Below, one piece after another: positions 3,732-58,853 of a stretch of 64,000 nucleotides of DNA. The notes below the pieces were generated by a model. That model searched no databases, had not been told where the DNA came from, and worked only from the letters and a program-made list of their open reading frames with translations. The position numbers were made by a program, and so were the translations under genes. Position 1 is the first letter of the stretch, and each line of letters begins with the position of its first letter. The stretch comes from an uncultured Alphaproteobacteria bacterium (GTDB taxonomy: Bacteria > Pseudomonadota > Alphaproteobacteria > Rhizobiales > Xanthobacteraceae): NCBI GenBank assembly GCA_963725065.1, contig CAVRXD010000041.1, positions 12,185 to 76,184 on the forward strand, in the 5' to 3' direction.

Positions 3732-4843
3732 CGGCTTCGCCCCTTCTCATCCGGCCCCTCTCGGTCTGCAGCATTATCGGCGTTGCGCTGGTCGCGGTCG
3801 CGAGCCGCACCGTCTTCATTCACCCATTGCCGCAATGCCATCATGTTGCGAAGAAATTCGCGACCGCGCATAGCCGGATAGCCGAGCCACCTCTCGCCCG
3901 CCGGTATATCGGACATCACGCCGCTTTGCGCCCCGACAATTGCGCCTTCGCCGATCGTCACGTTGTCGGGAAGCCCGACCTGTCCGGCCAGAATCACGTG
4001 GTCCTCGATGACGACACTACCGGAGATGCCGCACTGCGAGACGATGATGCAATGGCGACCGATCGAAACATTGTGTCCGATCTGCACTAGGTTGTCGATC
4101 TTGGTACCCTCGCCGATCACGGTATCGCGATTAGCGCCACGGTCGATCGTAGTGCCGGCACCGATCTCCACATCATCCTGCAGGATGACGCGACCCACCT
4201 GCAGCACCTTACGGTGACCGGCCGCTCCCATGACATAGCCGAACCCGTCCTGTCCTATGGAGCACCCGGGGTGCACCACCACCCTGTCGCCGATCAAGCT
4301 ATTGGTGATCGAAGCATTGGCACCGATTGCACAGTCTCGCCCGATGCGCACCTTGGGTCCGATGACGGCGCCGGCGTTGATCACCGTACCGGTCCCGATC
4401 TCCGCACGAGGCCCGATGACGACACCGGGATCTATCGTCACGCCACTTTCCAGGCGCGCGCTCGGATGCACAAAGGCGCCTGTCGCTACACCGCTCGTTT
4501 CAAACAAGGAGGATGGCCGGATCGCGTCCGGAAACAGCGTCCGCGTCACTTCAACGAAGGCGCGATAAGGTTCGGCGACGCAGAGGACGCTGATATGGGC
4601 GGGAGCACCGCCGGCGTGGCGTTTCGTCGTCAGGCAGGCGCCTGCGCCGCTAGCGGACAGCTGGGCCGCATATTTCGGCTTGTCGAGAAATGCGAGATCG
4701 TGGGGGGCCGCGCGATCAAGCGCGGCAATTCCGGTGATTCGACGATCGAGATCGGCGCCGGGCTGCGGCTCGGCGCCCGTAAGGGCGGCGATCTCACGCA
4801 CGGTAAGCCCCCGCCCCCGATTGAAGAAAAAGGGCTCGGTCAT
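3728..4843 (-). CDS. lpxD: UDP-3-O-acylglucosamine N-acyltransferase
   Basis: 371-aa ORF with an LpxD N-terminal domain ([13 protein letters not shown]...) followed by a long hexapeptide-repeat region. It carries a roughly 30-aa charged C-terminal tail. Confidence 0.9.
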
Positions 4844-17506: not shown

Positions 17507-20500
17507 TTACACCGCCTCGACCGCGACCACCCCGGGCACCGCCTTGATGGCGCCGGCGATCTGCGGAGACACCCTGAAACGTCCGGGGAGCTTGACCTCG
17601 ACCTCGGTCCCCTCGCCCAGCATCAGCACCAGCGCCACCTCCCCCTGGTCCTGCGCCACGCGGCCCGCGCTGGGAGCCTCGAGCCGCTTGGCCACGCTCT
17701 CGATCGGCGCCTCCGCGCGCAGGAACACCCGCAGGCCCTTGGAGAGCTTGGCCGCCGCCTGGTCGAGCGGCTCCACCATCTGGATGCGCGCACGCACATC
17801 GTCGCCCTGCAGTTCCGCCGACAGCATCAGCAGCACAGCCGCGCCCGGCTCGAGCAGATCGCGGAATTGCGCCAGGCCTTCGGAGAAGAGGACGGCCTCG
17901 TAATGACCGGTCGGATCGGACAGCCCGATGATGCCCATCTTGCTGCCGGTGCGCGTGCGCCGTTCAGTGCGCGCGACCACGGTGCCGGCGACGCGCCCCA
18001 CATTCGCGCCGGTGCGCACCGAGCGCGCAAACTCGGCCCACGACTGCACCCGCATGCGCTTGAGCGTGGCAGCGTAATCATCGAGCGGATGACCGGTGAG
18101 AAAAAAGCCGATGGCATCGAACTCCTTCTGCAGCCGTTCGGCCGGAAGCCAGGGCTCGATGTCGCCGAGCGCGAGCGGCATGTGGGCGGGTCCGCTGCCG
18201 AACAGTTCCGACTGTCCCACGGCGACGTCCTCGTGGGCGCGCTGCGCGGTCGCGAGCATGGTGTCGACGGTCGCGAACACACGGGCGCGATTTCCTTCCA
18301 GCGCGTCGAACGCGCCGGCGGCAGCCAGGCTCTCCAGCACGCGCTTGTTGACGGCATGCGGGTCGACCCGTCCGGCAAAATCGGCGAGACTGGAAAACGG
18401 GCGCGCGCCGCGCGCGGCGACGATCGCCTCGACGGCCTGGCGGCCGACGCCTTTGAGCGCGGCGAGCGCGTAGTGGATGGTGCTGCCTTCCACCTCGAAG
18501 GCCACGCCCGAGCGGTTGATCGAGGGCGGCTCGACCTTCACGCCGAGGCGCACGGCCTCGGCACGGAATTCCGAGAGCTTGTCGGTGTTGCCCATGTCGA
18601 GGGTCATCGAAGCCGCGAGAAACTCGACCGGATGGTTCGTCTTCATGTAGGCGGTCTGGTAGGCGACGAGCGCGTAGGCGGCGGCGTGACTCTTGTTGAA
18701 GCCGTAATCGGCGAAACGCTCGAGCAATTCGAAGATCATTTCGGCCTGGCCGCGATCGATGTCGCGCTCGACGCATCCCGACACGAAGCGGGTACGCTGC
18801 TTCTGCATCTCGCTGCGGATTTTCTTGCCCATCGCGCGACGCAGCAGGTCGGCTTCGCCGAGCGAATAGCCCGCGAGAATTTGCGCCGCCTGCATCACCT
18901 GTTCCTGGTAGACGATCACGCCGAAGGTTTCGCGCAGGATCGGCTCCAGCTTGGGATGGATGTAGTCGGGCTCCTCCATGCGGTGCTTGCGCGCGCAGTA
19001 GGTTGGGATGTTGGCCATCGGGCCCGGTCGATAGAGCGCGACCAGCGCGATGATGTCCTCGAAGCGGTCCGGGCGCATGTCGAGCAGGGCGCGCCGCATG
19101 CCCTGACTTTCCAGTTGGAAGATGCCCACCGCTTCGGCGCGGGCGAGCATGGCGTAGGTTTTTTCGTCGTCGAGCGGGATCGCCGCAAGATCGATGTCGA
19201 TGTCGCGCTTGCGCAGCAGCGCGACCGCCGTCTGCAACACGGTAAGTGTCTTGAGCCCGAGAAAATCGAACTTCACCAGGCCCGCCTGCTCGACCCATTT
19301 CATGTTGAACTGGGTCACCGGCATGTTGGACTTCGGGTCGCGGTAGAGCGGCACCATCTCGGTGAGCGGCCGCTCTCCGATCACGATCCCGGCGGCGTGC
19401 GTGGAGGCGTGGCGGTGCAGGCCTTCGAGCCGCTGCGCGATGTCGAAGGCGCGCGCGACCACCGGATCGCTCTCGCGCGCGGCCTGCAGCCGCGGCTCGT
19501 CGTCGATGGCGCGGCCGAGCGTGACCGGATTGAGCGGGTTCTGCGGCACGAGCTTGCAGAACTTGTCGACCTGGCCGTACGGCATCTGCAGCACGCGGCC
19601 GACGTCGCGCAGCACGCCGCGCGCCTGCAGCGTGCCGAAGGTGATGATCTGCGCGACGCGATCGCGGCCGTAGCGCTCCTGCACATAGCCGATGACCTCG
19701 TCGCGGCGGTCCTGGCAGAAGTCGATGTCGAAGTCGGGCATCGACACGCGCTCGGGATTGAGGAAGCGCTCGAACAGCAGCCCGAAACGCATGGGGTCGA
19801 GGTCGGTGATGGTGAGCGCATAGGAGACGAGCGATCCCGCTCCCGAGCCGCGGCCCGGCCCGACCGGGATGCCCTGCCCTTTCGCCCATTGGATGAAGTC
19901 GGAGACGATGAGGAAGTAGCCGGGATATTTCATGCCGGCGATCACGTTGAGCTCGAAGGCCAGCCGCTCGCGATAGTCCTCGACCGTGCGGCTGGGCGCG
20001 ATGCCGTGGTTGCTGATCCGCTGCTCGAGTCCGGCCTCGGCGCGCTTGCGCAGCTCCGCCGCCTCGTCGACCGCGGCGCCCTCGCTGCCCACGGAGAATC
20101 GCGGCAGGATCGGCGCCTGCACGCGCGGCCGGAAGGCGCAGCGCTGCGCGATCTCGACCGTCGAGGCGATGGCCTCGGGAAGGTCCGCGAACAACTCTGT
20201 CATTTCCGCGCGGGTCTTGAACCGGTGCTCGGGCGTGAGCTGGCGCCGGTCGGTCTCGACCATGAGCCGCCCTTCGGCGATGCAGATCAGCGCATCATGG
20301 GCCTCGTAGTCCTCCCGGCGCGCGAACAACGGTTCGTTGCTGGCGACGAGCGGGATCCCGCGCGCATAGGCGAGCTCGACCAGCGCCGGCTCCGCGCTGC
20401 GTTCCGCGGTCGTGCCGTGCCGCTGCAGTTCGATGTAGAGCCGGTCGCCGAAGAGCCGCTGAAGGGCCTCGCAGCGCCCGTTCGCCAGTTGCGCCTGACC

Positions 20501-20959
20501 GGCGAGCACGGCGGCGTCGAGCGGCCCGCCCGGGCCTCCGGTCAGCGCGATCAAGCCGGCGCTCTCGTCCTCGAGCCAGGCCAGCTTCAGGTGAGGCTGC
20601 TCATTCGGCTCGGTTTCGAGGAACGCGCGCGAGTTCAGGCGCATCAGGCTGCGGTAGCCGCTCTCGCGCGCGGCCAGAAGAACGATGCGCGGGCGCTCCA
20701 GCATCGGACCCGTGCCGGGACGTGGACCGCTGTCCTGATCGAGAAAATCGATTGCGAGCGCGCAGCCGATGATCGGCTGAATGCCCGCCGCTGCCATCTT
20801 GTCGGAGAATTCGAGCGCCCCGAACATGTTGTCGGTGTCGGTGAGCGCGAGCGCGGGCTGGCGGTCGGCCTTGGCGAGCTCGGCCAGCCGCGCAATCGTC
20901 AAAGCGCCCTCCAGCAAGGAGTAGGACGAGTGCACATGCAGATGGACGAAGCCCGGCAT
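17507..20959 (-). CDS. dnaE: DNA polymerase III alpha subunit
   Basis: 1150-aa ORF with the PHP domain start MPGFVHLHVHSSYSLLEGAL, ...MPDFDIDFCQDRRDEVI... (palm), ...FNKSHAAAYA... and a C-terminal OB region. Confidence 0.95.
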   Translation of the reverse strand: MPGFVHLHVHSSYSLLEGALTIARLAELAKADRQPALALTDTDNMFGALEFSDKMAAAGIQPIIGCALAIDFLDQDSGPRPGTGPMLERPRIVLLAARESGYRSLMRLNSRAFLETEPNEQPHLKLAWLEDESAGLIALTGGPGGPLDAAVLAGQAQLANGRCEALQRLFGDRLYIELQRHGTTAERSAEPALVELAYARGIPLVASNEPLFARREDYEAHDALICIAEGRLMVETDRRQLTPEHRFKTRAEMTELFADLPEAIASTVEIAQRCAFRPRVQAPILPRFSVGSEGAAVDEAAELRKRAEAGLEQRISNHGIAPSRTVEDYRERLAFELNVIAGMKYPGYFLIVSDFIQWAKGQGIPVGPGRGSGAGSLVSYALTITDLDPMRFGLLFERFLNPERVSMPDFDIDFCQDRRDEVIGYVQERYGRDRVAQIITFGTLQARGVLRDVGRVLQMPYGQVDKFCKLVPQNPLNPVTLGRAIDDEPRLQAARESDPVVARAFDIAQRLEGLHRHASTHAAGIVIGERPLTEMVPLYRDPKSNMPVTQFNMKWVEQAGLVKFDFLGLKTLTVLQTAVALLRKRDIDIDLAAIPLDDEKTYAMLARAEAVGIFQLESQGMRRALLDMRPDRFEDIIALVALYRPGPMANIPTYCARKHRMEEPDYIHPKLEPILRETFGVIVYQEQVMQAAQILAGYSLGEADLLRRAMGKKIRSEMQKQRTRFVSGCVERDIDRGQAEMIFELLERFADYGFNKSHAAAYALVAYQTAYMKTNHPVEFLAASMTLDMGNTDKLSEFRAEAVRLGVKVEPPSINRSGVAFEVEGSTIHYALAALKGVGRQAVEAIVAARGARPFSSLADFAGRVDPHAVNKRVLESLAAAGAFDALEGNRARVFATVDTMLATAQRAHEDVAVGQSELFGSGPAHMPLALGDIEPWLPAERLQKEFDAIGFFLTGHPLDDYAATLKRMRVQSWAEFARSVRTGANVGRVAGTVVARTERRTRTGSKMGIIGLSDPTGHYEAVLFSEGLAQFRDLLEPGAAVLLMLSAELQGDDVRARIQMVEPLDQAAAKLSKGLRVFLRAEAPIESVAKRLEAPSAGRVAQDQGEVALVLMLGEGTEVEVKLPGRFRVSPQIAGAIKAVPGVVAVEAV

Positions 20960-21158
20960 TCAACCCTCGCGATTCTCGCTGCAGGCGAATGTGGGGGCGA
21001 GGTGCGGGCGGTGTCTACTGTGGGCGCCGTCGGGGACGACCTGATGCGGCTTATCCCCAGACTCTTGTTCCCGGACTTTGGGGTTCATATCCCGGGCTTG
21101 CCGCCCGGGCTCTGGGTTGGCGGGTTGTCGGGCTGATCGGCCCGCCCTCGGCAGCGCC

Positions 21159-21257
21159 TCAGAGGGTCGCGATGACCTGCGCCCAGATCGCAATCATACC
21201 CAGAAACAGCGCCAGCGAGGCGAGCGTGGCAGCTTCTTCAACGACGGCCCGAACCAT
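21159..21257 (-). CDS. candidate 32-aa hydrophobic small protein (too short for the ORF track)
   Basis: ATG at 21257 sits 7 nt after AGGAG. The translation is MVRAVVEEAATLASLALFLGMIAIWAQVIATL, then TGA at 21159-21161: one predicted TM helix after a short acidic N-terminus. A promoter-like element with twin LexA-type boxes lies 20-60 nt upstream, and dnaE starts 199 nt downstream on the same strand. Confidence 0.45.
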   Translation of the reverse strand: MVRAVVEEAATLASLALFLGMIAIWAQVIATL

Positions 21258-21278
21258 GATCCAACTCCTGCACAACAA

Positions 21279-21311
21279 GAACAGGACATGAACATAGTTC
21301 ATGCTCTGTTC
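21279..21311 (-). promoter_or_regulatory. twin LexA-type operators (GAAC-N7-GAAC, 3 nt, GTTC-N7-GTTC)
   Basis: The plus strand reads GAACAGGACATGAAC ATA GTTCATGCTCTGTTC. Both halves fit the alphaproteobacterial SOS-box direct repeat exactly. Together they form a near-perfect 33-nt palindrome centred on the putative -10. Confidence 0.55.
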
Positions 21312-21321
21312 CAAAGTCAAG
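21292..21321 (-). promoter_or_regulatory. sigma70-type promoter candidate for the 32-codon ORF (and possibly dnaE)
   Basis: The minus strand reads CTTGAC-N18-CTATGT, close to the rhizobial housekeeping consensus CTTGAC-N17-CTATAT. The -10 lies between the two LexA-type boxes. Confidence 0.45.
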
Positions 21322-21592
21322 CGAGGTGTTGGATCTCGCGAAACGCGATCGGAGCGTTGGAACGGAGCACGTATCGCCGGCGCCTAGAAGAGAGCCCCTC
21401 CGAAACGGGGCCGAGTCGATCGTCTTGGGAGGTGCCCGACCCGCGTCGCAGGGGTGGGCATCCCTATCTAGGTCGTCCGCGGCCACCTCGTCTGTATCGA
21501 ATTGATCACCACCGGAAGATTGACCCGGACCGGCTACCGGGCGGGACTTCAGAAATCCACCGCCGGTAACCGCTTCGAGCCCAGCGCGCCGA

Positions 21593-21874
21593 TCAGCGCC
21601 GCTTGGTCCGGTTGCTTCGTCCGGTGCTCTCCGGGCTTTTCTGGCCGCTTCCATAGGCCAGGTACCACGGATTCTGGACGCAGAACCCGCCGCCGCCACG
21701 CGCCGTCATCATGCATTGCTCGAACGAGGTGAAGGCGCAGGTGGTGCCGTTATCGCCGTCGTTGCCGCCGTACTGGACGCACCAGGGCCGGTAGATTTCC
21801 GCAGCGGCCGGTTGGGCATCGATTGCGAGCGCGGCCGACGCCAGCACGGCGAACGCGACGCGGGTCATGATCAT
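21593..21874 (-). CDS. DUF3551-like small secreted cysteine-containing protein
   Basis: 93 aa from MIMTRVAFAVLASAALAIDAQPAAA (signal peptide), then EIYRPWCVQYGG...TTCAFTSFEQCMMTARGGGGFCVQNPWY. The PWC...C.F.S.EQC...GGFC.NP pattern is as I recall it for DUF3551. Confidence 0.7.
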   Translation of the reverse strand: MIMTRVAFAVLASAALAIDAQPAAAEIYRPWCVQYGGNDGDNGTTCAFTSFEQCMMTARGGGGFCVQNPWYLAYGSGQKSPESTGRSNRTKRR

Positions 21875-22022
21875 GGCCGTCCTCGTAAATTCGCCCCGCA
21901 GGTTCGAACACCGGGTCCGGATTGTTGTTCCCGCGCCGATCCGGCGCCGCTGCGACACCCCGGTCGCCTCAACCGCCGCTGCCCGTTGTGATAAGCAAGG
22001 GCGCCTACGCGGGAGGACGCAA

Positions 22023-22976
22023 ATGTCGCGATTAATACTGCGCCGAGGTCTGGCCGCCACCCTGTCGCTGATGCTCCTGCACGGCGTCGCGGTCGCGGAG
22101 GATGCGCTCAAGATCGCGGTCGGGCAGCGCGGCGGCTGGGAGCAGTGCGTGTCGGAACTCGGCCAGAACGCCGGCATCTTCAAGAAGCATGGCCTCACGC
22201 TTGACGTGCTCTACACCCAGGGCAGCGGCGAGACCATCCAGATCGTGCTCTCCGGCAGCGTCGACATCGGCATCGGTCCCGGTACGCACGCGGTCTTCGG
22301 CGCATTCGCCAAAGGCGCCCCGATCCGGATGATCGGCGCGTCGTTCACCGGCGCCCGTGACCAGCTCTATTACGTGCGCGCCAACTCGGCCATTCGCGGC
22401 ATGAAGGATGCCGAGGGCAAGACCATCGGCATCTCGACCAGCGGATCGAGCTCGCACATGCTCGCCTTGGCGCTCGGGAAGCACTTCGGGGTGAGCCTCG
22501 TCCCGCAAGCGACCGGAAACTATTCGTCCACCCTCACCCAGGTGATGACCAAGCAGGTCGATATCGGGTTCGCGCAGGCACCGTTCGCGCTCGACGCGGT
22601 GGAAGATGGACGCATCCGCCTGGTGGCGAAGGGCGCCGATATTCCGGAAGTCCAAAATCAGACCATCCGCGCCTGGATCGCGCACGCGAACACGTTCGAG
22701 CGGCGCAGGGATGCTTTGGCGCGCTACGTGAAAGCCTATCGCGAGACGCTCGATTGGCTCTATGCGAGCCCGGATGCCGTCAAGGCCTATGCCGCCTGGT
22801 CGGGGCTCGGCGAACGTCTTGCCCGCCAGGCGCCCGACTTCATCACCAAGGACAGCATCGATCCTGTTCGCATCATCGGGCTGGAGGACATGATGGGCGA
22901 TGCGGTGAAGTTCAAATACATCCCCGCGCCGCTGACCGGCGAGCAACTGGCTACGCTGGTGCAGGTGCCGAAATAG
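22023..22976 (+). CDS. ABC-transporter periplasmic solute-binding protein (NMT1/SsuA-like), orphan
   Basis: 317 aa from MSRLILRRGLAATLSLMLLHGVAVA (signal peptide), then LKIAVGQRGGWEQ...YTQGSGETIQIVLSGSVDIG... No permease or ATPase gene is adjacent. Confidence 0.65.
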   Translation: MSRLILRRGLAATLSLMLLHGVAVAEDALKIAVGQRGGWEQCVSELGQNAGIFKKHGLTLDVLYTQGSGETIQIVLSGSVDIGIGPGTHAVFGAFAKGAPIRMIGASFTGARDQLYYVRANSAIRGMKDAEGKTIGISTSGSSSHMLALALGKHFGVSLVPQATGNYSSTLTQVMTKQVDIGFAQAPFALDAVEDGRIRLVAKGADIPEVQNQTIRAWIAHANTFERRRDALARYVKAYRETLDWLYASPDAVKAYAAWSGLGERLARQAPDFITKDSIDPVRIIGLEDMMGDAVKFKYIPAPLTGEQLATLVQVPK

Positions 22977-23018: not shown

Positions 23019-23762
23019 CTACTCCAGCTCGATGACCAGGCCGTCCCGAAGCGTGACGCGGCGGTCCATGCGTCCGGCGATCTCCATGTTGTGGGTCGCC
23101 ACCACGACCGCGAGCCCGGAGGCCTGCACCAACTGGGTGAGCGCGGAGAACACGTGCTCGGAGGTGCGCGGGTCGAGATTTCCGGTCGGCTCGTCGGCGA
23201 GCAGAATGCGCGGCGCGTTGGCGACCGCGCGCGCGATCGCGACCCGCTGCTGCTCGCCGCCCGAAAGCTCCGCCGGGCGGTGGGTGAGACGGTCCTTGAG
23301 CCCGAGATAGCTCAGCAGATCGGTCGCGCGTCGAACCGCTTCCGGGCGCGACAATCCGCGGATCATCTGCGGCATGATCACGTTCTCGAGCGCGGAAAAC
23401 TCCATCAGCAGGTGGTGGAACTGGTAGACGAAGCCGATCTCGAGGCGCCGGATGCGCGTACGCTCGGCATCCGGGAGGCGTGATGTCGGCGCCTGGTCGA
23501 TATAGACCTCGCCGGCGTCCGGCTGCTCCAGCAGGCCGGCCACGTGCAGGAGCGTCGACTTGCCGGCGCCCGAGGGCGCCACCAGCGCCACCGACTGCCC
23601 CGGCCAGATCGCGAACTCGGCTCCCTTGAGGATGTTCAGGACGACGTCGCCCTGGCTGTAGTGCCGGTCGATGCCGTGCAGGAACAGGATCGGCGGCGTT
23701 TCCGCGCCGGCTTCGTCGCCCGACTGCGACCCCGCCCTGTCGTGGATCGTCGCATCACTCAT
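23019..23762 (-). CDS. lolD: lipoprotein-releasing system ATP-binding protein
   Basis: 247-aa ORF with Walker A (APSGAGKST), the ABC signature ([14 protein letters not shown]) and Walker B ([12 protein letters not shown]). It lies immediately downstream of the LolC/E permease with an 8-nt overlap. Confidence 0.85.
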
Positions 23763-55437: not shown

Positions 55438-55860
55438 TCAGGTTGCCGCGCCTCTCGCAGTCCTGGCAGCGCGGAAGCCGGCAGCGGCCGATTCCTTCTC
55501 GCACATATACGCGCCCGTCTTGGTCTTGCCGTAACTCCGGCTGCCGCTGCCGTGATAGACTTTGGATGTCGAATTCACCCACACGACGGTATCGGCCCGG
55601 CAGTTCGTTTTGGCCTCGGCTTCGGTCGCGTATTGGTCCTTGCCTGCCGGTACCGCCGCGGCCACACGCGCGGCAACCGGTACGCCGCGACATTCGGCCA
55701 CGAAGACGCGCTTGGTCTTGCCGCTTGCCTGGATGGCCGCCCTGTCGGCGCTCCATTCGTCGTTGCATTGCTTGGCTGTCTTCTGTTGTGCGACCGCGGA
55801 TTGAGACAAAGCCAGCAGTCCCACCAATGCCGCACACGCAGCAGTGAAGGTCGGTTTCAT
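55438..55860 (-). CDS. hypothetical secreted protein (PsiF-like N-terminal motif)
   Basis: 140 aa from MKPTFTAACAALVGLLALSQSAVA (signal peptide), then QQKTAKQCNDEWSADRAAIQASGKTKRVFVAECRG (resembles the PsiF repeat) and a C-terminal half ..VVWVNSTSKVYHGSGSRSYGKTKTGAYMCEKESAAAGFRAAR. It has its own terminator and its own upstream control region. Confidence 0.65.
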   Translation of the reverse strand: MKPTFTAACAALVGLLALSQSAVAQQKTAKQCNDEWSADRAAIQASGKTKRVFVAECRGVPVAARVAAAVPAGKDQYATEAEAKTNCRADTVVWVNSTSKVYHGSGSRSYGKTKTGAYMCEKESAAAGFRAARTARGAAT

Positions 55861-55982: not shown

Positions 55983-56024
55983 GTTCCTTTTTTGTTCCAA
56001 CAATGTCAAGAACAAATAGAGAAC
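55983..56024 (-). promoter_or_regulatory. second pair of LexA-type boxes flanking a TTGACA hexamer
   Basis: The plus strand reads GTTCCTTTTTTGTTC CAACAATGTCAA GAACAAATAGAGAAC. On the gene (minus) strand this is GTTC-N7-GTTC, then TTGACATTGTTG, then GAAC-N7-GAAC. It lies about 125-165 nt upstream of the 55860 start, in an A/T-rich patch. Confidence 0.45.
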
Positions 56025-56093: not shown

Positions 56094-58535
56094 TCAGTGC
56101 GCGGTGAGCACTGAAGAATCGGTCTCGACCGCCGGCTCGGTGGTGACCGACGTCTCCGTCGGCTTGGCCTTTTCCTCGTCCCACTCGATCGGTTCCGGTT
56201 TGCGGGTGAGAGCGCGCGCGAGCACCTCGTCCATCCGCGAGACCGGAAGGATCTCGAGACCTTTCTTGATGCTCTCGCTGATCTCCACGAGGTCCTTGGC
56301 GTTCTCCTCCGGGATCAGCACCGTCTTCATGCCGCCGCGCGATGCCGCGAGCAGCTTCTCCTTCAAGCCGCCGATCGGTAGCACCCGACCGCGCAACGTG
56401 ATCTCGCCAGTCATGGCAACGTCACGGCGCACCGGGATGCCGGTCATGACCGACACGATCGCGGTGACCATGGCCACGCCCGCCGACGGGCCGTCCTTTG
56501 GGGTCGCTCCCTCGGGCACGTGCACGTGGATGTCCTTCTTGTCGAACCTCGGCGGCTCGATGCCGAAGGCGACCGCACGCATGCGCACGTAGGAAGCGGC
56601 AGCCGAGATCGACTCCTTCATCACGTCACGCAGATTGCCGGTGACCGTCATCTTGCCCTTGCCGGGCATCATCGCGGCTTCGATGGTGAGCAGTTCTCCG
56701 CCCACATCGGTCCACGCCAGCCCGGTCACGACGCCGACCTGATCCTCGTCCTCGACCTCGCCGTAGCGGTACTTCGGCACGCCGAGATAGTCGGACACGG
56801 TTTTCGCCTCGACCGTGATCGCCTTCTTCTTGGTCAGCGTCAGTTCCTTCACCGCCTTGCGGATCAGGGTCGAGAGCTCGCGCTCGAGATTGCGCACGCC
56901 CGCTTCCCGCGTGTAACGGCGGATCAGGAGCAGCAACCCCTCGTCGTCGATCGACCATTCCTTGAGGTCGAGGCCGTGCTTGGCGACCGCATGCGGGATC
57001 AAGTGCTTGCGTGCGATCTCGACCTTCTCGTCTTCGGTATAGCCGGCGATCCGGATGATCTCCATGCGGTCCATCAGGGGCGGCGGGATATTCAGCGTGT
57101 TCGCCGTCGTGATGAACATGACGTTGGAGAGATCGTAGTCGACCTCGAGATAGTGGTCGTTGAAGGTATGGTTCTGCTCGGGATCGAGCACTTCGAGCAG
57201 CGCCGAAGACGGATCGCCGCGGAAATCGGCGCCCATCTTGTCGACCTCGTCGAGCAGGAACAGCGGGTTCGACGACTTCGCCTTGCGCATCGATTGGATG
57301 ACCTTGCCGGGCATCGAACCGATATAGGTGCGCCGGTGGCCGCGAATTTCGGCCTCGTCACGCACGCCGCCGAGCGACACGCGCACGAAGTCGCGGCCGG
57401 TCGCACGCGCGATCGACTTTCCAAGCGAGGTCTTGCCGACGCCGGGCGGGCCGACGAGGCACAGGATCGGCCCGGTGAGCTTGTTGGCCCGCTGCTGAAC
57501 GGCGAGATACTCGACGATCCGCTCCTTCACCTTCTCCAGGCCGAAGTGATCGGCGTCCAGGATCTCCTGGGCAAGTGCGAGGTCCTTCTTGACCTTGCTC
57601 TTCTTGTTCCACGGGATCGACAGCAGCCAGTCGAGATAGTTGCGCACCACCGTCGCCTCTGCCGACATCGGCGACATCTGGCGCAGCTTCTTGAGCTCGT
57701 GGGTGGCCTTTTCGCGCGCCTCCTTCGAGAGCTTGGTCTTCTTGATCTTGTCCTCGATCTCGGCGAGCTCGTCCTTACCTTCCTCGTCGCCGAGCTCCTT
57801 CTGGATCGCCTTCATCTGCTCGTTGAGGTAGTACTCGCGCTGGGTCTTCTCCATCTGGCGTTTGACGCGCGTGCGGATGCGCTTCTCGACCTGCAGGACG
57901 GAGATCTCGCTCTCCATCAGCCCGAGAACCTTCTCCAGCCGCTCGGTGACCGACGGCGTCTCCAGGATCACCTGCTTGTCGGGAATCTTGACCGCGAGAT
58001 GCGAAGCCACCGTATCGGCGAGCTTGGCGTAGTCCTCGATCTGCTGAACCACGCCGACAACTTCCGGCGATACCTTCTTGTTCAGCTTCACATAATTCTC
58101 GAACTCGTTGATGACCGAGCGCGCGAGCGCTTCGGCCTCGACCTGCTCGCCGCTGGCATCCGCCAGCACGACGGCGTCGGCCTCATAGTACTCCGCGCGG
58201 TCTGTGTAGCGCTCGACCTTGGCGCGCGCAGCGCCCTCCACCAGCACCTTGACGGTGCCGTCGGGCAGCTTGAGCAGTTGCAGCACACTCGCGAGCGTAC
58301 CAATCTCGAAGATGGAACCCGTCGCCGGGTCATCGTCTGACGCATTCTTCTGGGTCGCGAGCAGGATGAAGGTATCGGAACGCATCACCTCTTCGAGCGC
58401 CTTGATCGACTTTTCGCGTCCAACGAAAAGCGGGACGATCATGTGCGGGAAGACGACAATGTCACGCAGCGGCAATACCGGATAAGCGCGGGTTTCGCCG
58501 GGGATCAGAGGCGGCTTTGGCTTTGCGCTAGTCAT
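56094..58535 (-). CDS. lon: ATP-dependent protease Lon
   Basis: 813 aa from [44 protein letters not shown] (LON N-domain), with Walker [10 protein letters not shown] and the protease active site ..[17 protein letters not shown].. The 62 upstream codons of the track ORF were rejected. Confidence 0.95.
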
Positions 58536-58853
58536 GGCCCGAGGTCCTTGTTGTTGTGCCCCCCGCCCGTCACCCGCGGTTGCGGCATCACGGTCGAGTG
58601 CAGAGGTGGGCCGGGAAGGGAGCACGGCCGGCCCCGATGGGCACCCGTGCGCCAGAGGGTGGGTACGAAACCCTCCCCGGAGAATTTCGAAGCGATCCTT
58701 CGTACGCTTTTTCGTTCGCACAATAGGTGGCGACGGCTCGGGCTGGTGTCAAGTAAGCCCGAAAATTCAAGCAAATAGCCACCTTAGGGGCGCCCGCCCG
58801 GCGCATCCGATCCGAATCGAAGACCGCCCCCGCCCGCCCCGGTTGCGGTGCAC

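Follow-up and report, generated by a model that had tools for sequence, protein, structure and literature searches.

A conserved 32-codon gene behind a double LexA operator upstream of dnaE in Xanthobacteraceae, a probable counterpart of Caulobacter sidA

The reference SOS division inhibitor aimed at FtsW, FtsI and FtsN instead of FtsZ is SidA, a 29-residue membrane peptide of Caulobacter; the SidA-type system was reportedly described by Modell et al. in 2011. Here we describe a 32-codon open reading frame (ORF) directly upstream of dnaE in a 64-kb stretch of DNA from an uncultured member of the Xanthobacteraceae (contig CAVRXD010000041.1). The whole stretch is called the window below, and all coordinates of the module are given on its minus strand. 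We judge it probable, at roughly 60%, that this locus represents, in Xanthobacteraceae, the sidA-dnaE SOS module of the Alphaproteobacteria and encodes a LexA-repressed, damage-induced inner-membrane peptide of the SidA type. Both the SidA-type system and SOS control of dnaE are already known from Caulobacter, and the locus is an extension of that known system. The novelty lies in an extensive peptide family, strongly conserved but unannotated, that occupies the orthologous position in another alphaproteobacterial order.

In Caulobacter, sidA (CC_1927, ccna_02004) responds to mitomycin C with the strongest induction of any gene, and dnaE (CC1926, ccna_02003) is listed together with it among the SOS genes. 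The sidA promoter has two LexA boxes and gives the highest LexA peak among the early genes in chromatin immunoprecipitation (ChIP). Its transcription unit measures 3557 bp, which corresponds to sidA plus dnaE. After 40 minutes of mitomycin C, dnaE shows a log2 fold change of 1.18, and in a lexA sidA double deletion the value is 1.45, an increase of about 2-fold. An earlier comparative study likewise gives dnaE as LexA-regulated in Caulobacter and found it again in its alphaproteobacterial comparative analysis. We recovered the Caulobacter locus (L081) by scanning metagenome contigs with the published sidA primer. In this locus GAACATCTTGTGAAC is followed after 19 nucleotides (nt) by GAACAAAACAAGAAA, then after 15 nt by the ATG of the 29-residue SidA, and dnaE begins 36 nt past the sidA stop codon. 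An earlier reading of the window, made from its sequence only, had suggested that sidA adjoins dnaE; this was correct, as CC_1927 lies directly 5' of CC1926 and the same arrangement is seen in L081. The same sequence-only reading named GTTC-N7-GTTC as the Caulobacter LexA box, in agreement with the motif of the ChIP-bound promoters.

Several other inhibitors of division resemble the window element in part. YneA from Bacillus and SosA from Staphylococcus are LexA-repressed, single-pass membrane proteins which block late division and do not act on FtsZ, but they are longer, possess extracellular domains and are unrelated in sequence. Additionally, their LexA operator is CGAAC-N4-GTTCG and they have no linkage to dnaE. 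DidA, also from Caulobacter, is a small membrane division inhibitor acting at the FtsW/FtsI/FtsN step; it is SOS-independent and activated by DriD, and is neither LexA-regulated nor located beside dnaE, whereas the window element has canonical LexA boxes. The gammaproteobacterial SulA shares the SOS-induced block of division, but is a cytoplasmic protein that binds FtsZ and is unrelated in size, location and sequence.

Curated annotation, in the form of the NCBIfam model NF033228, detects SidA only in Caulobacteraceae. If the peptide described here is a SidA orthologue, a DNA-damage checkpoint gene could be annotated in hundreds of soil and freshwater alphaproteobacterial genomes, the numerous natural variants would provide a data set for mapping the interface between SidA and the divisome, and the coupling of dnaE expression to the SOS response would become a conserved trait that calls for an explanation.

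The peptide gene, its operator and its position

The 32-codon ORF with its stop codon, MVRAVVEEAATLASLALFLGMIAIWAQVIATL, occupies positions 21159-21257 (ATG at 21257, stop codon at 21161-21159) and is preceded by a Shine-Dalgarno sequence, AGGAG, located 7 nt ahead of the ATG (21265-21269). A promoter scan identified a candidate SOS promoter with the -35 hexamer TTGACT (21315-21320) and the -10 hexamer TATGTT (21291-21296), separated by 18 nt. This spacer is filled by LexA box 1, GAACAGAGCATGAAC, detected by a motif scan as GAAC-N7-GAAC (21297-21311). A TAT spacer joins box 1 to LexA box 2, GTTCATGTCCTGTTC, which has the form GTTC-N7-GTTC and is inverted with respect to box 1 (21279-21293). 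The -10 hexamer is made up of the TAT spacer and the first GTT of box 2, and box 2 overlaps both this hexamer and the predicted transcription start, which the position of the promoter would place at about 21284. The gene for the DNA polymerase III alpha subunit, dnaE (1150 amino acids [aa], 17507-20959), starts with an ATG at 20959, 199 nt past the stop codon of the peptide.

A word-seeded protein search with the 53-aa extended frame as query returned 466 protein clusters that match the ORF, and hardly any variation is seen in the 32 C-terminal residues of any of these clusters. Residues before the methionine vary in length and derive from different frames of the LexA box (MNYVH..LF, MFMSCS.., ELCSC..), indicating that the true start is the methionine of MVRA. 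Scanning one genome per species yielded 134 loci, 80 of which were retained (L001-L080). All 80 are of the Xanthobacteraceae type and include Pseudorhodoplanes, Rhodoplanes, Variibacter, Pseudolabrys and many uncultured members. Codon statistics, computed over 76 different DNA sequences of the ORF, gave a raw pN/pS of 0.23 in frame compared with 1.10 and 4.16 in the other two frames, and column entropy at codon positions 1, 2 and 3 was 0.61, 0.18 and 1.25 bits. Synonymous sites vary freely along the entire ORF, and since no stretch of them is constrained, nothing suggests an overlapping RNA. The ORF is a genuine protein-coding gene under strong constraint.

These results agree in large part with the sequence-only reading. 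It had described a promoter overlapped by two inverted LexA boxes, followed by AGGAG, a 32-codon ORF and, 199 nt on, dnaE, and each of these elements was found in its place. Its claim that an unannotated small ORF encodes a peptide is borne out by the pN/pS value in frame and by the near-invariant 32-aa core of the 466 clusters. It had also proposed a search of Bradyrhizobiaceae and Caulobacter for a small transmembrane (TM) ORF syntenic with dnaE and constrained at the codon level. Such an ORF was found 5' of dnaE, with the constraint at the codon level, but there is no Bradyrhizobium among the 80 retained loci.

The head of the peptide is polar, with three charged residues (R3, E7 and E8), and is followed by one hydrophobic helix which reaches the C-terminus (maximum KD19 2.16, GRAVY 1.62). 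A single pass through the inner membrane is therefore the predicted topology. Scans of the peptide against Pfam and NCBIfam gave no meaningful match. The only source name within the family is 'hypothetical protein', and most clusters are unnamed. An exhaustive profile search of 1.84 billion representatives produced 488 matches; the 150 that were listed all belong to the same family, differ in their mis-called N-termini, and include neither SidA nor any other lineage. Fragments of the peptide sequence occur in none of the papers searched.

Gene callers routinely place the start of these tiny ORFs too far upstream, at an ATG that lies within a LexA box or adjoins one. In the present family this creates products of 46-48 aa beginning 'MNYVH...' (window 21257-21320), and the same artefact is seen in Caulobacter, where the annotated 40-aa form of SidA begins at the ATG abutting the second LexA box (L081 8018-8050). 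Many database entries thus bear a translated operator as a false N-terminus. The in-frame upstream ATG chosen by the gene callers sits 5' of the -10 element and so would not be present on the SOS transcript.

Copies of the peptide also occur in other settings. Three extra copies, extended to 69 aa (MLRAIVEEAAALASLVLFLGMIAIWTQVIATPDPAAP...), are found on the single chromosome OY970184.1 (L025, L037 and L042, ~3800-4230 in each). They are within ~420-bp repeats that are ~95% identical and have no LexA boxes and no dnaE. An ORF on the opposite strand overlaps the L025 copy and, by eye, resembles a fragment of an ATP-dependent DNA ligase. Additionally, proteins P0153, P0170, P0174, P0186, P0189 and P0196 form a subgroup with MGRAIVEEIATLASLALFVGMVAIWAQVIATL, in which the upstream translation is conserved but reads ...TRWIFGH.GVSN instead of a translated LexA box. 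This suggests that the subgroup represents copies in another genomic or regulatory context.

Single GAAC-N7-GAAC boxes are not rare in the window, where five are present, 2.0 would be expected, and 7 of 100 shuffles contain as many. The exact 33-nt double box is present once, with 0.00 expected, and was reached in none of 100 shuffles. Conservation is much stronger evidence for an operator than this chance estimate. Among the window and the 80 retained loci (n = 81 for all operator counts), 77 have the double box, and in these the tetranucleotides GAAC/GAAC/GTTC/GTTC show no or almost no variation. Conservation across the same 77 loci extends to the (T/A)AT spacer and ATGTT, with (T/A)ATGTT nearly invariant, and the N7 stretches vary about the A/T-rich LexA consensus. 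For box 1 the N7 consensus across loci is A-(T/A)-A-(A/C)-(C/A)-A-T, which matches the reverse complement of top-scoring Caulobacter LexA boxes, for example GTTCTTGTTATGTTC (the reverse complement of GAACATAACAAGAAC). The sequence TTGA[CT] is found 16-20 nt, mostly 17-18 nt, 5' of the -10 element in 76 of the 77 double-box loci. Between box 2 and the ATG there are 11-40 nt, with all three frames represented, and a Shine-Dalgarno-like motif is present at -18..-4 in 78/81 loci.

The window therefore has, at a promoter, the GTTC-N7-GTTC direct-repeat operator that marks the alphaproteobacterial LexA regulon, a motif identical in type to the Caulobacter boxes bound by LexA in the ChIP data. With box 1 occupying the promoter spacer and box 2 lying over the -10 element and the predicted start, repression by occlusion would be the obvious reading. 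Taken together, the data support a role of the palindrome as a protein operator, presumably bound by LexA, and not as a hairpin. One of the retained loci, L028 (~3900-4300), encodes the peptide with dnaE 190 nt 3' of it and has no LexA boxes upstream, as if its SOS promoter had been lost or replaced naturally.

The position of the gene is conserved as well. A dnaE gene follows directly 3' on the same strand in 76/80 loci, and a lolD-like ATP-binding cassette (ABC) ATPase gene lies 5' on the same strand in 66/80. In the window, gene list and synteny place this upstream neighbour at 23019-23762. In about 20 of the 66 lolD-bearing loci the distance from lolD to the peptide ATG is only 96-230 nt. 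Across loci the spacer between the peptide gene and dnaE measures 98-2011 nt, with a median near 190, and is poorly conserved close to the ORF. T-runs are absent from most of these spacers. The sole strong hairpin in the window spacer is GC-rich, CCCGGGC-GGCAA-GCCCGGG (21091-21109), and has no U-tract, and is thus not a canonical terminator. The scarcity of T-runs and the hairpin without a U-tract make read-through into dnaE plausible, and from this absence of terminators the peptide gene and dnaE would be co-transcribed. Folding of the spacer revealed no unusual structure (z = -1.56).

A block in the spacer alignment resembles a second promoter. In the window this dnaE-proximal candidate element reads TAGACA-N17/18-CACATT (20988-21017). 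In relatives the corresponding block, TGGACA-N15-19-CAC[AC][AGT]T, gives a regular-expression match in ~38/76 loci at -56 to -150, mostly at -56 to -91. In 25/76 loci TGGGGA[TC]AA is found at -88 to -120 of dnaE, and the window has TGGGGATAA (21051-21059) about 100 nt 5' of the dnaE start; these sequences resemble the DnaA-box consensus and are putative DnaA boxes. A further conserved sequence, GAATCGCGAGG, precedes the dnaE start codon. These features suggest that dnaE has its own, possibly DnaA-responsive, promoter, and with a conserved element of this kind in the spacer dnaE would not depend on the SOS promoter.

Relation to SidA

To place the peptide family relative to SidA, we compared it with NF033228 (div_inhib_SidA, an equivalog model with a cut-off of 35 bits) and with individual SidA sequences. 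Caulobacter SidA scores 72 bits against this model, and peptides from three further loci, L085, L082 and L087, score 66, 61 and 56 bits. As they pass the cut-off, these three are bona fide SidA proteins. A word-seeded search with SidA itself found only Caulobacteraceae, in 23 clusters, and a literature search for SidA homologues returned only the fungal siderophore SidA.

We then built a family hidden Markov model (HMM) from 67 distinct 32-mers and compared each target peptide with 5000 composition-preserving shuffles. Against the L085 SidA the family HMM scores 11.9 bits, a value reached by 0/5000 shuffles. The scores for the L082 and L087 SidA peptides are 10.6 bits (8/5000 shuffles) and 6.9 bits (54/5000 shuffles). 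Profile-profile alignment of the family with SidA by hhalign gave P = 0.0013, or P = 0.0008 with a broader SidA alignment, in one ungapped register which aligns conserved E, L, S, F, M, A and Q residues of both families. The window peptide itself shares 9/29 identities with SidA in the best register (p ~0.014). Thus, the sequence similarity to SidA is weak; it appears to lie above chance and falls short of proof.

The other features of the two loci can be compared directly. Both promoters carry two LexA boxes of the GTTC-N7-GTTC type; those of the window are exact copies and would be LexA binding sites, as in the SidA family. SidA has 29 residues and the window peptide 32, and in both a short polar head, M-x-R...E, leads into one TM helix which runs to the C-terminus. 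The head would be cytoplasmic, and no C-terminal tail follows the helix, the predicted architecture thus being that of the SidA family. The charged residues are R3, R6 and E7 in SidA and R3, E7 and E8 in the window peptide, with a maximum KD19 of 2.06 and 2.16, respectively. Both genes lie between lolD and dnaE on the dnaE strand. The place directly 5' of dnaE is that of the SidA family, and a shared transcription unit with dnaE is likely here. The misplaced start at an ATG of the LexA box, described above, is likewise common to the two. Position, regulation and architecture thus independently back a probable homology to SidA, and we regard the family as probably the SidA orthologue at the orthologous position in Xanthobacteraceae.

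The differences must be weighed against this assignment. Identity to C. crescentus SidA is ~30% over 29 residues, rising to ~45% against Caulobacteraceae variants, and the window peptide is three residues longer. It is unmatched by NF033228, as are two divergent members of its family, even at E <= 10. Against C. crescentus SidA the family HMM reaches only 4.4 bits, with 184/5000 shuffles at or above this score, and in the reciprocal test a SidA HMM was not significant against the window peptide. The hhalign probability is just 18-25%. The operators also differ in arrangement; the boxes are inverted and 3 nt apart here but tandem direct repeats 19 nt apart in Caulobacter. Four of the 81 loci encode the peptide without LexA boxes. 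Signature motifs of RecA, LexA, UvrA, UvrB, RuvB, RecN and Ssb were all absent from the 64-kb window, which thus offers no canonical SOS gene for comparison of the operator. Finally, dnaE follows 199 nt after the peptide gene (98-2011 nt in relatives) and has a separate promoter-like element, whereas the distance in Caulobacter is 36 nt; with the longer spacer and this element the coupling to dnaE may be weak.

Proposed mechanism and alternative explanations

The operator, coding and synteny data are consistent with the following sequence of events. In the undamaged cell, LexA would sit on the two abutting inverted operators, which are defined by sequence and conservation, and keep the promoter shut by occlusion. 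DNA damage would lead to RecA-stimulated self-cleavage of LexA and thereby open the promoter. The resulting SOS mRNA would have a leader of ~27 nt with a strong Shine-Dalgarno sequence. It would direct the synthesis of the 32-residue peptide, whose coding sequence is under selection and which should insert into the inner membrane without any tail past its TM helix. The peptide would most likely delay cytokinesis by binding the late divisome proteins FtsW, FtsI and FtsN, and not FtsZ. Action on the late divisome is most likely because of the homology to SidA, as indicated by position, regulation, architecture and weak similarity; division inhibition by the window peptide is thus proposed by analogy with SidA. 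As the ORF lacks a canonical terminator behind it, some of the SOS mRNA probably continues into dnaE and would add a modest rise on top of the gene's own promoter, as in Caulobacter. The suggestion of the sequence-only reading that dnaE is partly under SOS control agrees with the induction of Caulobacter dnaE and with the missing terminator, but it has to be qualified by the promoter-like element in the spacer.

The sequence-only reading had left two options for the peptide, a division inhibitor or a toxin, and the former is favoured. A toxin would be an SOS-induced pore-forming or depolarising peptide of the type I kind, following the logic of TisB or DinQ and serving dormancy or persistence instead of acting on the divisome. 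The gross features of TisB, namely LexA control, a length of ~30 aa and a single hydrophobic helix, are all found here, and TisB and DinQ are LexA-controlled hydrophobic inner-membrane peptides of this size. The boxless paralogous copies without dnaE in the ~420-bp repeats of one genome hint at mobility. The TisB/IstR-1 and DinQ/AgrB pairs differ from the window element, however, in that the latter has no antisense or antitoxin RNA signal, a short and unstructured leader and no sequence similarity to these peptides. The promoter scan found no promoter-like site on the opposite strand. A scan of positions 20500-22300 at E <= 1 gave no Rfam family other than two chance-level eukaryotic ones, and the freely varying synonymous sites leave no hint of an overlapping antisense RNA; these negatives do not in themselves show that such an RNA is lacking. 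The leader of tisB is long and structured, whereas the predicted leader of ~27 nt here leaves the Shine-Dalgarno sequence exposed, and the distance from box to ATG stays within 11-40 nt across loci. Additionally, the place between lolD and dnaE is that of sidA, and what similarity there is points to SidA, while TisB obtained no score against the family HMM. We therefore consider a toxin improbable. A different role for an SOS-induced small membrane protein, in the envelope, in transport or in connection with the replisome, with the adjacency to dnaE merely historical, is unlikely too, if a little less so than a toxin. The function is deduced solely from SidA, to which identity is ~30% (C. crescentus, 29 residues), and other lineages have very different peptides in this position (L088 and L090). 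Regulation, size, topology and position, on the other hand, are shared by these lineages and by SidA, which has been defined by experiment, and the TM face is under strong purifying selection, as would suit binding to a specific protein.

The two remaining explanations deny a function to the peptide as such. The ORF could be a cis-acting leader whose translation, and not its product, tunes dnaE. It does lie 5' of dnaE, both genes are on one strand and no canonical terminator separates them, but variation is found at synonymous sites and hardly at all in the amino-acid sequence, and the spacing to dnaE ranges over 98-2011 nt with little conservation near the ORF. The fold of the spacer is unremarkable, dnaE has a promoter-like element of its own, and copies of the peptide occur away from dnaE. 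We regard a leader peptide as very improbable. Even less can be said for a chance reading frame next to a terminator hairpin. The sequence-only reading had kept as its fallback that the palindrome is an A/T-rich terminator hairpin of the upstream DUF3551 gene, and a pattern scan does give an 8-bp stem (21304-21286) with a weak T-rich tail. Complementarity between the N7 arms, however, is 2.92 of 7 positions within loci compared with 2.73 between loci, a value equalled in 160/2000 shuffles, and invariance is confined to the tetranucleotides. A DUF3551 gene is upstream in just 5/80 loci, and the coding signature of the ORF is strong. The absence of covariation between the arms, the rarity of DUF3551 and the coding constraint refute the terminator hairpin, and the probability we leave to it is negligible. 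A SidA-type division inhibitor under LexA control thus remains the preferred interpretation of the locus.

Related loci in other lineages and a second box pair

We sampled further lineages from the DNA around truncated N-terminal fragments of DnaE. A LexA box, a small TM ORF and dnaE are found together in L082, L085, L086, L087, L088 and L090. The bona fide SidA loci L082, L085 and L087 represent further Caulobacterales, and the gene order in the Caulobacteraceae locus L085 is lolE-lolD-sidA-dnaE. L086, also from Caulobacterales, encodes MARWVRESLSLASCAGVVWLVWQAALMVPTA, which scores below the NF033228 cut-off. In L088 (~820-960) a 28-aa TM peptide, MRDLAKDVVSLFVVTGFVLSLTIFIHTM, is accompanied by TTGACA and GAACATAAAAGGAAC, and in L090, a Rhizobiaceae-like contig (~16-135), a 32-aa TM peptide, MTAHIKDLAALIVVVSFIASIGVIHEAMQLLI, is accompanied by GAACAAAGAAGGAAC; each has a single LexA box 5' of dnaE. 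Neither of these two peptides matches NF033228. With the family HMM, the score of the L088 peptide is reached by 263/5000 shuffles and that of the L090 peptide is not significant. The peptide looks to diverge fast between lineages while being frozen within them.

Other loci have no such gene. In L083, L084 and L093 (~1100-1500 in each) the lolD-like ABC ATPase gene ends 0 to ~60 nt before dnaE, with no small ORF and no LexA box between the two, and the peptide is likewise absent from L091 and L092. The first three are useful negative cases for dating the gain or loss of the module. With presence in some lineages and absence in others, the module looks widespread but patchy. A broader proposal, which we advance tentatively and rate somewhat short of even odds, is that the module of lolD, a LexA promoter, a tail-less TM peptide of ~30 aa and dnaE is ancestral and widespread in the Alphaproteobacteria. 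SidA would then belong, as a single branch, to a large family of SOS division inhibitors that diverges fast and is mostly unannotated, every member co-evolving with the FtsW and FtsI of its host, and SOS control of dnaE would be a conserved by-product or feature of the arrangement.

Lastly, the window contains a second pair of exact LexA-type boxes at 55983-56024, in the opposite arrangement and flanked by 55438-55860 and 56094-58721. On the minus strand it reads GTTCTCTATTTGTTC, TTGACATTGTTG, GAACAAAAAAGGAAC, with TTGACA between the boxes. The pair lies just past the lon terminator and ~120 nt 5' of a gene for a 140-aa secreted protein with no Pfam match. One of its boxes, GTTCCTTTTTTGTTC, is identical to the box of Caulobacter ccna_03118, and the pair may mark a second SOS promoter in the window.

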